Positions 134 to 60,917 of a stretch of DNA of 64,000 nucleotides are shown here, one piece after another; position 1 is the stretch's first letter; every line of letters begins with the position of its first letter. The translations under genes and the position numbers were made by a program. This DNA is from Heptranchias perlo. Its lineage: Eukaryota. The notes beneath the pieces were generated by a model. That model saw only the letters and a program-made list of their open reading frames with translations, was not told the DNA's origin and did no database searches. The stretch lies in assembly GCF_035084215.1 (NCBI RefSeq), contig NW_027138892.1, positions 186,001 to 250,000 on the forward strand, given 5' to 3'.

Positions 134-869
134 CATATTGATAGCGTCTTTATTGAGCTTTTATTTCTCTATTCTCTTCTGCCTTTTTCTCTGGCATTTG
201 TCTCTCGGTGCCGGGAGACCATTTGATTTGAGGCATTTGTCCTAAACTGATGTCTTTTCCACATCTCGGGGCGGTCAGACCCGCTCTGTCTGTTACTACT
301 TGTGACCATTGACGGGAACAGACGCGAGTTAAACGTTTACCAGCAAACCGACAAAGAGATAACACAACGGGAATCAAACTCATTGGGCATGATTTTATCG
401 AGGGGGGGGGGGGGGTCATGGGAGGCGGTCAGGGGTCATGGGAGCTGGTCAGGGGTCATGGGTTGGACAGTCATCGGTGCGAAGACTCAGTCATCGGGGG
501 CTGGGTTCGGGGGTCATCGCGGGGGTCGGAGATCATGGGGTTTGTCGCTCGTGCAGGGGTGTCGGAGATTTGGAGGGGGTCAGCCGATCGCCTATATGGG
601 ATCGCGGCAGGTTGGCTTGTTGGGCCAGGGGGAAGCACTCCTGCTCCTCCGGGCCCACAAGCTGTGCTATAAAGGCATTTACCTGCTGTTTCGGGCCTTC
701 CCGTCTCCTCTCATGTGGTGTGAAGGAGAAGGCCCAGGAATCCCGGCCCCCACGAGCTAAAAATAAAAAAGCTGTGAAAATGGAGGCCCGCATCCGAGCA
801 ACATAAACACACACACACAGACAGAGACACACAAACATACACACACCAATAACCTGAAAGTAACACAGG

Positions 870-1152
870 ACGACCTGACAAACAGTGGAAGCAGCATGCT
901 GTGGATCGAGCTAAGCGATCCCACAAACAACGGATCAGATCAAAGCTCTGCCGTCCTGCCACATCCAGTTGTGAATGATGGTGGATAATTAAACAACGAA
1001 CGGGAAGAGGCTCCATGAACATCCCCATCCTCAATGATGGTAAAGCCCAGCACGTGAGTGCAAAGTGTTCGCAACCGCCTTCAGCCAGAAGTGCCGAGTG
1101 GATGATCCATCTCGGTCTCCTCCCGAAATCCCCACCATCACAAAAGCCAGTC
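870..1152 (+). mobile_element. Internal fragment of the LINE family at 5423-8690; further copies at ~3005-3280(+) and ~58495-58775(-)
   Basis: gaagcagcatgctgtggatcgagctaagcgatcccacaaacaacggatcagatcaaagctctg matches the reverse complement of ~7050-7330. Confidence 0.85.
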
Positions 1153-1295
1153 GAACATCGAGGTGAAGAGTGAAGCTGAGAGCAGATTTTAAAACCGCTG
1201 GAATATCAGTGAAATTAAATTGAAAAACTCTGAGTCAGTTGCACTGCACATTCCACATCCAACATTGGAGATAAATACTTTTGAAAACGTTGAAT

Positions 1296-1367
1296 CGCCG
1301 CGTTGAGAAATTGAACCACGTTCTCCCGCGTAAGAAGCAGGGACACTCACCACAATACTAAAGAGGA
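1296..1367 (-). pseudogene. tRNA-Asp pseudogene
   Basis: Reverse complement tcctctttagtattgtggtgagtgtccctgcttcttacgcgggagaacgtggttcaatt... aligns to tRNA-Asp(GTC) with many substitutions, including the anticodon. Confidence 0.75.
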
Positions 1368-1565
1368 ACTGCTGCATTGAATGTACACTCACCCCAGATG
1401 GTGTTAGACATGCTTCATGTGTCACTGCATTTCTTTTAACTATTTATTTGATGACAGTTTGTTTAATTTTCCACGGGCCACTCTTGAAAGAATCTTTTAC
1501 ATTTCCATCTCTTTGTTAGTCAATAACTGACTTTGTCTTTCTTTCGTTCTTTCTTTCTCTCTTAT

Positions 1566-1616
1566 CCTGGTGAGTTGCTCCGCGTCAGTCCGGGGTTTAA
1601 TTCCCCGACGGGGAGG
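1566..1616 (+). pseudogene. Internally deleted tRNA-Asp fragment; copies at ~3716-3765(+) and ~58010-58060(-)
   Basis: tggtgagt...ccggggtttaattccccgacggggag is the D-arm remnant plus T arm and acceptor end of tRNA-Asp. Confidence 0.65.
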
Positions 1617-57245: not shown

Positions 57246-58262
57246 TGGAGAGCTTTCCACCGGAGCGGCAGCTGAACGGATGGTCTCAATCTTTGTGACA
57301 GAATAGTCCAGGAGCTCCTCGCAATTTTTTTGGTGAGTGTGGAGGGGGAAGGGGGTGCAAGAAGACGGTTTGTGGTCGAGAAGAGATACAGGGGATATCT
57401 TTGGATTCCAGGATGATCCTGGAATAGTGAGCAGTTTTCTGTCTCACTCTGTTCAGAGAGAAAGAGACTGAGACCTACGCAGGAAAACATAGAAACTATG
57501 AGGCACATACACAGACAAACAGACACAGACACACAGAAACAGACACACATACACATGGAGTGACTCAGAAATACAGAGATACAGAACATGGATAATTTGG
57601 CTGATTTTTGTTCGATTTCTGTCGTAGATTTCGTGAAATCTTGCAGATCAATTAAAATGAGCATAAAACTCGCGGTGTTCAACATCGTGGAATTTCAATT
57701 CACTTAAGAATTATTAATTCTACAAGAAACTTGTTGAATTTTCAAACGCAGAGATGAAACAGGTTGATGAATGACGGGGTCTGAAGTCTGTCAGATTTGA
57801 ACCTGCGCGGGGGAAATGAATGAATTTCGAATCTGTCACCTTCATCACCAGTTAGCAAAAATCACAATTGCTCTGCATCCAGTCCTCAAATAGTCTCCGT
57901 ACAATAATATTCTGAAAGTGACAATCACCTGTTTTTTTGCTCTGCAGTTTTTGTTCAGGAAGAAGCTCGGCGAAGACATAAAATTAAAAGTTGGCGTCTG
58001 ATAAATGCTTCCTCCCCGTCGGGGAATTAAACCCCGGACTAAGGCGGGGCAACTCACCACGATAAGAGAGACAGAAAGAACGAAAGAAAGACAGAGTCAG
58101 TTGTGGTTGTCTAACAAAGAGAAGGAAATGTAAAAGGTTCCTTCAAGAGTGGCCCGTGGAAAATGAAACAAACTGTCATCAAATAAATAGTTAAAAGAAA
58201 TGCACTGATACATGAAGCATGTCGAACGCCATTTGTGATGAGTGCACAGTCAATGCAGCAGT

Positions 58263-58334
58263 TCCTCGTTAGTATAGTGGTGAGTATCCCCGTCTGTCAC
58301 GCGGGAGACCGGGGTTCAATTCCCCGACGAGGAG
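58263..58334 (+). tRNA. tRNA-Asp(GTC), near-intact (one U-G wobble in the anticodon stem)
   Basis: TCCTCGTTAGTATAGTGGTGAGTATCCCCGTCTGTCACGCGGGAGACCGGGGTTCAATTCCCCGACGAGGAG. Confidence 0.88.
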
Positions 58335-59337
58335 ATTAAACTTTCGCCGCCTTCAAAAGCTTTTATCTCCAATATTGGATGCGGAATATACAGTAAAAAA
58401 CTGACTCGGAGTTTCCCACTTTCCCCAATTTAATTTCACTGATATTCCAGCGGTTTTAAAATCTGCTCTCAGCGTCACTCTTCACCTCGATGTTCGACTG
58501 GCTTCTGTGATGGTGGGGATTTCGGGAGGAGGCCGAGATGGATCATCCACTCGGCACTTCTGGCTGAAGATGGTTTCTAAAACTTTGCACTCTCGTGCTG
58601 GGCTTTACCATCATTGAGGATGGGGATGTTCATAGAGCCTCTTCCCGTTAGTTGTTTAATTATCCACCATCATTCACAAATGGGTGTGGCAGGACTGCAG
58701 AGCTTTGATCTGATCCGTTGTTTGTGGGATCGCTAAGCTCTATCCACAGCATGCTGCTTCCACTGTTTGTCAAGTAGTCCTGTGTTACTTTCAGGTTATT
58801 GGTGTGTGTATGTCTTTATGTAGCTAGGAATGTTTGTGTATGTGTGAATATGACTATGTCTGTCTCACTTGTTATATGCGTTTCTGAGTGTCTCTCTCTT
58901 TCTTTCTATCTGTCACTTTTTCCCTGCTCCCCAAATAATTTTTGTCTGGATCTTGACTAATAAAGAGATAGAAAGTAAGTCTTCTTTCAACAGTGGCATG
59001 TGGAAAGTTAAACAAATTGTCATCAAAGAAGTAGTTAAAATAGATTCACTGAAACGTGCATCCTTTTCATTGCTGTATGTGAGATCTTTCATGTCTGCGC
59101 CTGTTCCGAGACCTGTCTCTCTCTGTTTCAGGCTGGTGACAGCGCGATTCTGCGTTTTATTTCTTGCCCATCATTGTGGTTCTCACATCGAGCTGAAGCG
59201 TGAGGCAGAGAGCAGATATTTAAAATCGCTGTGAAATCAATTTGCAGAAGTGGGAAAGGCCGAGTCAGTTTTTCATTGTATTTTCAACATCCAATATTGC
59301 AGAGAAATGAAAGTGAAGCTTCGAAAGCAGCAATAAC

Positions 59338-59409
59338 CTCCTCGTCGGGGAATTGAACCCCGGTCTCCCGCGTGACAGGCGGGGATACTCACCACTATAC
59401 TAACGAGGA
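59338..59409 (-). tRNA. tRNA-Asp(GTC), apparently intact, mirror of 2331-2402
   Basis: Exact reverse complement of the 72-nt gene at 2331. Confidence 0.95.
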
Positions 59410-60917
59410 ATTGGTACAGACATTTACCGTATATTCACCAAAGATGCTTCACTTTTCAGTGAATCTGTTTGAACTGTTCATTTGATGACAGTTTGTTTGA
59501 CTTTCCATGGACCACTGTTGAACGAAAAATTACCGACCTCTTTTCCATCTCATGTTGGATAATGATGTGGGTAACGCGGGAGAGAGTGAGACAGAAAGAG
59601 ACAGATCTTCTCAGGAAAATATAGAAAATATGAGGCACATACACAGAGAGACGGACAGACACAGACACACATACACATGGATTGACTCAGAAATACTGAG
59701 AGTCAGAATATGGATAATTTGGCTGATTTTTGTTCCATTTCTGTCGTAGATTTCGTGAAATCTTGCAGATCAATTAAAATAAGCATAAAACTCGAGGTAC
59801 TCAATGCTGGGGAATTTGAATTTGAATTTTGAAACGCAGTGATGAAACAGGTTGATGAATGACGGGATCTGAAGTCTGTCAGATTTGAACCTGCGCGGGA
59901 GAAATGAATGAATTTCTAATCTGTCACCTTAACCACCAGTTAGTAAAAATCACAATTGCTCTGCATCCAGTCCTCAAATTGTCTCTTAATTATCCACCAT
60001 CATTCACAAATGGGTGCGGCAGGACTGCAGAGCTTTGATCGGGTCCGTTTTTTGTAGGATCGCTGAGCTCCATCTGCAGCATGCTGCTTCCACTGTTTGT
60101 CAAGTACTTTATGTTATTGGTGTGTGTATGTTTGTGTGTATATGTCTGTGTGTGAGTGTTTATGTAGCTGGCATGTGGGCCTCCATTTTTACAGCTATTT
60201 TATTTTAAACTCTTGGGGTCAGGATTCCTGGGCCTTCTCCTTCACACCACATGAGAGGAGGCGAGAAGGCCCGAAACAGCAGTTAAGTGCCTTTATTGCA
60301 CAGCTTGTGGGCCCGAAGGAGCAGGAGTGCTTTCCGCAGGCCCAACAAGCCAACCTGCCGTGATCCCACACAGGTGATCGGCCGACCCCCTCCAAATCTC
60401 CGACACCCCTGCACGAGCTACGAACCCCATGATATCCGACCCCCGCGATGACCACCGACCCCCGACCCCCGATGACTGAGCCCTCCCTCCGATGATTGAC
60501 CCACCCATGACCCCTGACGACCTCCCATGACCCTCCGATAGAATCATGCCCAATGAGTTTGATTCCCGTTGTGTTTTCTCTCTGTCGGTTTGCTAATAAA
60601 CGTTTAACTCGCGGCCTGTTCCCGTCAATGGTCACAAGTAGTAACAGACAGAGCGGGTCTGACCGCCCCGAGATGTGGAAAAGACATCAGTTCAGGACAA
60701 ATGCCTCAAATCAAATGGTCTCCCGGCACCGAGAGAGACAAATTCCAGAGAAAAAGGCAGAAGAAAAAAGAGAAATAAAAGCTCAACAAAGACACTATCA
60801 ATATTTCCCATTCTTGATGCCTGTCTATTTCTTCCCTAACCTTTCTGTGCCGGTTAAAATTTCAGTGTAAATAAATGCGAGAATCGACTCAAAGAACGAG
60901 AACAAAGCAACAAAAAT

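Follow-up and report, generated by a model that had tools for sequence, protein, structure and literature searches.

Introduction

Amplified ZP3 genes, which encode an egg-coat protein, and amplified ferritin genes have each been described. In excerpts of a Greenland shark study, 155 and 179 ferritin copies are reported; their clusters are also found in the white shark, and the largest is described as ovary-specific (bioRxiv 10.1101/2024.09.09.611499). Catfish have 20-22 ZP3-like copies, some of them pseudogenes, with oocyte-only expression under E-box control, as described in excerpts of PMC13704971. Ferritin is listed as liver-typical in dogfish and as abundant in the ovary of zebrafish, and HoxC is placed on the elasmobranch X chromosome, in extracts of one or another of PMC8455134, PMC1488847, PMC5568229 and 10.1101/2025.02.26.637739. 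In this study, we analysed a window of 64,000 nucleotides (C725:186001-250000) from the 3.25-Gb genome of the shark Heptranchias perlo. It lies on C725, a 0.9-Mb unplaced scaffold of repeats, and contains a palindrome of ZP3-like and ferritin genes together with Tx1-clade long interspersed nuclear elements (LINEs).

The ferritin genes of H. perlo resemble the expansion excerpted from the Greenland and white shark work in having more than 100 copies in few clusters, mostly of full length. The main text of that preprint does not mention ZP3 or zona, and the excerpts of its ferritin section describe neither loss of the iron-responsive element (IRE) nor a recent transfer from another chromosome to a ZP3 array (bioRxiv 10.1101/2024.09.09.611499). 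The ZP3 genes are amplified in tandem and segmentally, as are ZP3 and ZP4 in the catfish excerpts. Compared with the 20-22 copies given there (PMC13704971), they are found at no fewer than 85 places across ~9 Mb. Their ~100-kb units, present in both orientations, hold tRNA genes, a G protein-coupled receptor (GPCR) gene and a ferritin cassette as well.

The initial annotation of the window had proposed a female-germline counterpart of the mammalian X/Y palindromes. The arms of those palindromes are more than 99.9% identical, sex-linked and maintained by gene conversion, and an arm identity above ~99% is the threshold for an ampliconic palindrome of this type. Here we report that gene amplification likely produced the palindrome of the window as a by-product, probably with the help of a retrotransposon found in the promoters of these genes.

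Results

A ferritin block collinear with C43 lies between head-to-head ZP3 genes

The window holds two inverted arms around a spacer, with two ZP3 genes and four ferritin loci that were all mapped as pointing away from the centre, as the initial annotation had it (Table 1). Its central block matches the ferritin array of C43 in a single piece (C43:4711886-4726320), which extends from the two left ferritins across the spacer to exon 3 of the pseudo-ferritin. The arrangement in C43 is non-palindromic, and the spacer differs from its C43 copy by 1.98%. The inner arms of 12 such cassettes were compared. In 7 of them (type I, the older form), the right side follows C43 to 4730579. In the other 5 (type II), the window included, the right side is a copy of the left that begins in exon 3 and runs outward. 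A marker base was common to all five type II right arms. It occurs seven times genome-wide and not once on C43, and the type II spacer-to-arm junction with this private marker was found five times on C38 and twice on C725. These results indicate that type II arose in a single event that was copied later.

In type I cassettes, a ~19-kb C43 piece (4711886-4730579) sits in the ZP3 array of C38 and C725 with a Tx1 LINE poly-A at both ends. Each of the flanking ZP3 genes is cut by a LINE at its TATA box. At 18760-18840 of the window, a LINE-LINE junction matches the sequence immediately upstream of the native ZP3 promoter in locus L197, which suggests that the cassette flank was built in several steps.

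We propose the following course of events. The IRE-bearing ferritin at C43:4.24 Mb, which adjoins the tandem array of IRE-less copies, would mark the starting point, and the C43 piece bounded by Tx1 poly-A in the ZP3 array (type I) would represent the state after the move. LINE insertion, or repair at LINE hot spots shared by the two loci, may have linked C43 with the ZP3 array and so caused the move. The right 4.4 kb of one cassette would have been overwritten by a left-side copy from exon 3, giving the long arms of type II. Ordinary segmental duplication would have multiplied both types, with a burst at ~1% pairwise divergence. The intact ferritins would supply eggs with iron-storage protein outside iron control; the cassette ZP3 genes would be mostly silent, and native-promoter copies would provide the egg-coat dosage. 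We give a probability of about three in four to this account as a whole, in which a C43 ferritin block came to lie between head-to-head ZP3 genes, the arms are likely due to one template switch in exon 3 followed by ordinary divergence, and the cassette adds extra, probably oocyte-expressed, ferritin dosage along with dying ZP3 passengers.

The recurrent junction also bears on an assembly artefact, in which two haplotypes were mis-joined or C725 is a haplotig of C38. C725 is a repeat scaffold, and the right ZP3 of the window and two ZP3 genes of another C725 cassette have C38 relatives at 0.75-0.85%, as such an error might produce. However, the same junction and private marker stand at the seven places given above, a 3.26-kb insertion and 1.6% substitutions set the arms apart, and the nearest relatives of the two window arms fall in different C38 cassettes. 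We consider an artefact extremely unlikely.

Table 1. Features of the analysed window (positions from its first letter; strand left empty where none applies)
Feature	Position	Strand	Remarks
Outer left homology, 86-97%	135..5425		tRNA-Asp, tRNA-His; belongs to ~100-kb ZP3 repeat unit
LINE with endonuclease and reverse transcriptase, 968-aa frame	5426..8687	-	Left arm only, 3.26 kb
Left high-identity arm, 20.7 kb	8688..29384		Window self-comparison
ZP3-like gene, 9 exons, open 459-aa frame	15519..18367	-	LINE in place of native promoter; exon-7 acceptor GAG
Tx1-clade LINE 3' end	18477..18794	-	Poly-A stops at ZP3 TATA box, ~45 bases before ATG
Second Tx1-clade LINE piece, 1.8 kb	18800..20666	+	Poly-A adjoins start of C43-derived block
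Block collinear with C43 ferritin array	20665..35128	+	C43:4711886-4726320, 97.2%, single piece
Outer left ferritin, 4 exons, 176 aa	23261..25823	-	Intact, without IRE
Inner left ferritin, 175 aa	28657..31710	-	Intact, without IRE; exons 1-2 within spacer
Spacer, 5.6 kb	29385..34972		5' halves of two ferritin paralogues, head-to-head
Tx1 3' end at TATA-like box of pseudo-ferritin	33458..33694	+	Also in C43 source
Inner right ferritin pseudogene	33750..35694	+	Stop at codon 7, damaged exon 2; exons 3-4 from left paralogue
Right high-identity arm	34973..55679		Inner 8.7 kb is left-arm copy in place of source sequence
Template-switch zone (putative), ferritin exon 3	34973..35119	+	Two inverted paralogues nearly identical; marker base
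Decayed IRE	38453..38488	+	5' stem retained, loop altered, hairpin unfolded
Outer right ferritin, 176 aa	38502..41063	+	Intact; TATA and CCAAT boxes retained
Mirror copy of both LINE pieces, right arm	43689..45820		Self-comparison
ZP3-like gene, 9 exons	46000..48850	+	LINE in place of promoter; exon-7 acceptor GAG; exon-9 acceptor AC (broken)
Outer right homology	55676..60804		tRNA-Leu and two tRNA-Asp

The window is part of a multi-megabase ZP3 array

The high-identity arms were 97.8-98.0% identical by BLAST self-comparison. Substitutions affect 325 of the 20,617 columns of their alignment (1.58%), and the longest identical stretch is 460 bases. The divergence was uneven, at ~0.9% across the ferritin part and 3.2% across the 5' part of ZP3. 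The inverted arms and their spacer are real, and the 97-99% identity first estimated was borne out; the length of ~24 kb given with it was too great, as the inner arms span 20.7 kb and the outer parts are 86-97% identical. Each arm carries a ZP3 gene as described, but one whole ferritin instead of two, the inner pair sharing the spacer. The tRNA clusters taken as the palindrome ends are no boundary. Within 2.3-5.4 kb and 55.9-59.4 kb, ARAGORN found five tRNA genes and Rfam six, and outward of the window inverted homology of ~85-98% runs to about C725:125 kb and 320 kb, with comparable tRNA clusters again at C725:323-336 kb. This extended homology indicates that ~100-kb ZP3 units alternate in orientation. 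At 61592-62890 of the window, a 54-base minisatellite was found with a 314-amino acid (aa) frame without a Pfam match, probably a mobile-element remnant.

The window ZP3 genes encode ZP-N and ZP-C domains (Pfam), and their nearest proteins are ZP3-like and from sharks. Exon mapping, Pfam and protein matches confirmed the ZP3 and ferritin identities, and the best protein matches came from H. perlo and other sharks, in line with the cartilaginous fish first predicted. ZP3-like proteins are multi-copy in several sharks, in clusters of 8-38 members when isoforms are counted.

A 26-mer of ZP3 exon 4 gave 90 exact matches, with 76 on C38, 8 on C725 and 6 on C1048; those on C38 lie at 9.2-17.9 Mb (70) and 20.4-20.9 Mb (6). 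Merged searches yielded 85 ZP3 places on C38, or 135 including a probe of the 5' untranslated region (UTR), partial copies possible. A ferritin 27-mer matched 133 times, and the 100 matches listed are divided between the ZP3 array and C43, where the tandem array consists of ferritins only. For the spacer, 40 of 48 candidates were scored, which gave at least 24 full-length copies, two on C43 and the remaining 22 within the ZP3 array. These counts support the gene amplification that had been suspected. The ferritin block has at least 22 copies within a ~9-Mb ZP3 array on C38 and unplaced scaffolds, and the window palindrome holds one of them. In this egg-gene array, which evolves by birth and death, the cassette behaves as a segmental-duplication unit. 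Attention belongs to the multi-megabase array rather than to the palindrome.

The ~100-kb ZP3 units also hold tRNA genes and an intronless GPCR gene of the rhodopsin family. Between the units, the 150 longest of 246 frames showed mobile-element domains and this GPCR only in Pfam, a search in which small exons could be missed. The GPCR, a 323-aa frame, is co-amplified within the unit (L122:1836-2804, L119:1068-2036 and L123/L124). A compact, older ZP3 cluster at C38:20.39-20.85 Mb (L105-L110) has 8-17 kb spacing and a GC exon-6 donor; it is separated by a long branch from the main array and is likely its source. Outside the main array, a 30-kb duplication at C38:3.65 Mb and 5.83 Mb (99.5% identity, L208-L213) carries a long LINE at the TATA box of a truncated ZP3. 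Two oppositely oriented spacers at C38:16.50-16.56 Mb form a higher-order inverted structure.

Paired arms show no special similarity to each other

Like the mammalian X/Y ampliconic palindromes, the window has inverted arms, a short spacer and likely germline genes. If paired oocyte genes were preserved here by continuing arm-to-arm conversion, partner arms should resemble each other most. A tree was built from 58 ZP3 gene bodies, 6 of the 64 ZP3 loci being incomplete and excluded from the tree and counts. The partner was the nearest ZP3 copy in none of 14 arms from seven cassette palindromes. The ZP3 genes of the two window arms are 2.77% apart, while a copy on C38 differs from the right one by 0.85%. 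In the inner 8.7 kb, the divergence of an arm is 0.92% from its partner, ~0.6-1.5% from the arms of other cassettes and ~2% from C43. When 22 blocks of this region were ranked against 12 left arms, the partner left arm came first in one, with two ties (~1.8 expected by chance). The two arms have their nearest relatives in separate C38 cassettes, and ZP3 lesions of one arm are neither shared nor repaired in the other. Ongoing arm-to-arm conversion is unsupported, since partner arms are no closer than arms of other cassettes. Partner-specific homogenisation is absent; occasional exchange is likely.

The chromosomal location was examined with mir-196, TIMELESS and separase, which we take to be markers of the X-linked HoxC region. 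We found mir-196 on C2, C33 and C49, TIMELESS on C49 and separase on C83; the tested markers were off both C38 and C43. As HoxC-linked markers lie on C49 and C83, C38, which carries the array, and C43 are likely autosomes; the scaffold C725 is connected to C38 solely through shared array sequence.

Compared with the mammalian X/Y palindromes, the window thus has 98.4% identical arms below the ~99% level, a likely autosomal position, no partner-specific similarity and decaying genes, with three of its six genes broken or promoterless. A female-germline palindrome of the X/Y type would account for the inverted arms, the spacer and the outward egg genes; the step from type I to type II is itself a one-off arm-to-arm copying, and a single site in exon 3 may have been converted. 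Nevertheless, with arms 1.6% apart and identical over at most 460 bases, partner arms rarely nearest, lesions confined to one arm and the tested X markers elsewhere, we find this proposal very unlikely.

Cassette ferritins lack the iron-responsive element and are largely intact

Three of the four window ferritins are intact, with four exons, ~176 aa and the ferroxidase-site residues. The inner two are different paralogues, and the right pseudogene was already broken in the C43 source. In other cassettes, frame and splice sites were intact in all 11 outer ferritins scored, and 10 of these had all seven ferroxidase-site residues, at the positions we assume for them. No stop codon was found in the ferritins of 14 arms, and ferritin promoters are retained. 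The pN/pS (non-synonymous to synonymous) ratio of the C43 ferritins was 0.49.

Among 82 candidates scored with Rfam, two IREs were found, one on C12 and one at C43:4243490 at the array edge. None was found in the amplified copies examined, and the window outer ferritins retain a decayed remnant. The fold of this remnant has -0.7 kcal/mol, compared with -5.5 kcal/mol in the IRE-bearing gene. Two divergent ferritins, with exons ~75-85% identical, accompany the IRE-bearing ferritin on the margin of the young array, at C43:4.24-4.26 Mb (L068, L069). IRE-less, TATA-driven ferritins would fit bulk iron storage in eggs. By analogy with the ovary-specific ferritin cluster and the oocyte-only ZP genes in the excerpts on the Greenland shark and catfish, the amplified genes are likely oocyte genes, as was first suggested.

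GYS1 and FTL are linked genes, and the source array of a ferritin of the FTL/M-locus type would be expected to share its chromosome with glycogen synthase. One of three glycogen synthase loci, a possible GYS1, lies on C43, 4 Mb from the ferritin array. A ferritin match at C5:116.3 Mb gave no four-exon gene in exon mapping.

Cassette ZP3 genes have lost their native promoter

Native ZP3 copies carry an E-box and a TATA box ~45-70 bases upstream of the ATG. In the cassette copies, including both of the window, this TATA box is where the LINE poly-A ends, and the promoter upstream of it, with the E-box, is lost. Splice acceptors of both window copies are weak or broken. The 17 LINE-cut ZP3 genes formed a single clade in the tree (support 0.993). 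The GAG exon-7 acceptor was present in 15 of these 17 and in 1 of the 41 others, and 16 of the 17 had a hard lesion or this acceptor. The pN/pS ratio was 0.72 in LINE-cut ZP3 genes (p = 0.07), compared with 0.52 in 30 native-promoter copies (p = 1e-6); it was 0.80 in the old compact cluster (6 copies, p = 0.31).

Several observations weigh against our account. Left- and right-type ZP3 genes are sister across cassettes in two cases, one site of the window's right exon 3 agrees with left arms, and in two further blocks the partner left arm shares first place. Hard lesions were found in 9 of 17 LINE-cut and 14 of 41 other ZP3 genes, which is not a significant difference (p = 0.24). The open frame is kept in 8 of the 17 LINE-cut genes, and a TATA-like word within the LINE 3' end could drive them. 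We infer both the silence of the cassette ZP3 genes and expression in oocytes. Constraint on the cassette ferritins was not significant (pN/pS 0.50, p = 0.16; coding versus non-coding p = 0.11), and these ferritins may be recent neutral copies.

The last point leads to the possibility that the cassette is neutral junk, a passenger of a rearrangement-prone array whose extra ferritins bring no benefit. The near-neutral cassette ZP3 genes, the deletions or insertions in many cassettes and the large C43 source array that is present anyway agree with this, as does the non-significant ferritin constraint. It fits poorly with the intact frames, splice sites and ferroxidase-site residues of the scored outer ferritins and with the absence of stop codons in 14 arms and the retained promoters. 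We judge it unlikely, though not negligible, and prefer the account in which the cassette adds ferritin dosage.

Tx1 LINEs recur at ZP3 and ferritin promoters and carry ZP3 pieces

The LINE family belongs to the Tx1 clade by open reading frame 2 (ORF2) protein similarity and has a poly-A tail and target-site duplications. Its 3' hairpin occurs in 472 exact copies, 16 of them on the 199-Mb C1. Among 62 ZP3 loci, six clear insertion sites and one complex site were found at about -150 to +382 of the ATG. In 160 kb of the C43 array, a relaxed pattern found 8 related LINE ends 100-920 bases upstream of ferritin starts, some of which represent one ancestral insertion. Full-length copies lie in ZP3 exon 1 at two places on C38, 11.84 Mb (L083 and L217) and 13.84 Mb (L092 and L218), where two tandem ~7-kb copies split the exon; these are candidate source elements.

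LINE tails elsewhere were examined at 20 loci on other chromosomes. Pieces of the ZP3 promoter, 5' UTR or intron 1 followed the poly-A in 8 of 25 tails, and a piece of the ferritin array in one. Five of the 20 loci had been chosen for two close LINE ends; ZP3 pieces were present at 4 of these 5 and at 4 of the other 15. With the ZP3 core as target, and with matches to LINE sequence inside one reference dropped (2 tails, 2 controls), 8 of 25 tails matched compared with 1 of 50 controls. That control was the same physical tail, and no independent control matched. A 20-mer of the ZP3 5' UTR outside the array lay at LINE 3' ends in all 15 places listed, 13 sense and 2 antisense; a further 29 matches fall outside this listing. 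In seven cases, target-site duplications of 11-15 bases enclose the LINE, the ZP3 piece and a second A-tail. The pieces behind the Tx1 poly-A measure 16-330 bases, some are serial, most are enclosed by target-site duplications, and exon 1 is among them (L154, L158, L162, L167, L169-L172; L173-L188 on C1-C33).

Such pieces are unlikely to derive from ZP3 mRNA because they start at the TATA box, upstream of it, or in antisense. In L1 elements, 3' transduction from source elements is established, and there too flanking DNA is carried inside target-site duplications. The simplest reading of the tagged tails would be 3' transduction from elements resident in ZP3 genes. The apparent preference for ZP3 and ferritin promoters may reflect open chromatin or sequence-specific targeting, both being compatible with the data. 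At C22:27.13 Mb (L185/L186), a second LINE apparently lies inside an exported ZP3 5' UTR piece, which is duplicated; this hints at targeting at the sequence level. At L079 and L082, within the ZP3 array, LINE tails combine pieces of the ZP3 promoter with a flank of the ferritin array, which suggests traffic from array to array.

Target-specific Tx1 LINEs are defined in excerpts of PMC4494074 by more than 20% of flanks being of one sequence type, and the targets named there are small nuclear RNA (snRNA) and 5S genes, microsatellites, satellites and transposons. The H. perlo family shares with them the Tx1-clade protein and an apparent preference for a multicopy target. In contrast to these named targets, it recurs at the promoters and in the 5' parts of egg genes that encode proteins, and ZP3 pieces in 8 of 25 tails are carried DNA at new sites.

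Discussion

In this study, we found that the window palindrome belongs to a ZP3 array into which a ferritin block of C43 has been incorporated. The claim of a female Y-type palindrome falls away, while the structure itself is real. In the literature searched, in which few subscription journals were covered and preprint supplements lay outside the scope, no shark ZP3 mega-array, ZP3-ferritin cassette or ZP3-nesting LINE was found. The scale, the fusion, the IRE loss and the ZP3-tagged LINE tails likewise had no described counterpart there.

A wider proposal is that the Tx1 family uses amplified egg-gene promoters, those of ZP3 and the IRE-less ferritins, as landing site and launch pad in the oocyte, that about one third of its copies descend from ZP3-resident elements, and that traffic between the arrays built the ~9-Mb ZP3-ferritin amplicon, the largest egg-coat gene array found. 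We put this forward tentatively, as a possibility that we would not yet favour.

The egg-coat array is several times the size of that in catfish. It holds native, LINE-cut and broken copies together and so offers a gauge of selection for oocyte gene dosage. The expansion of ferritins in sharks, reported to be ancient, is still mobile, as a block changed chromosome at ~2% divergence. The lost iron control of the ferritin copies would fit bulk iron stocking of large eggs. The ZP3 tags in LINE tails record the location of the parent element and, if confirmed, would provide a readout, from sequence alone, of the germline and the loci that feed retrotransposition in a vertebrate.

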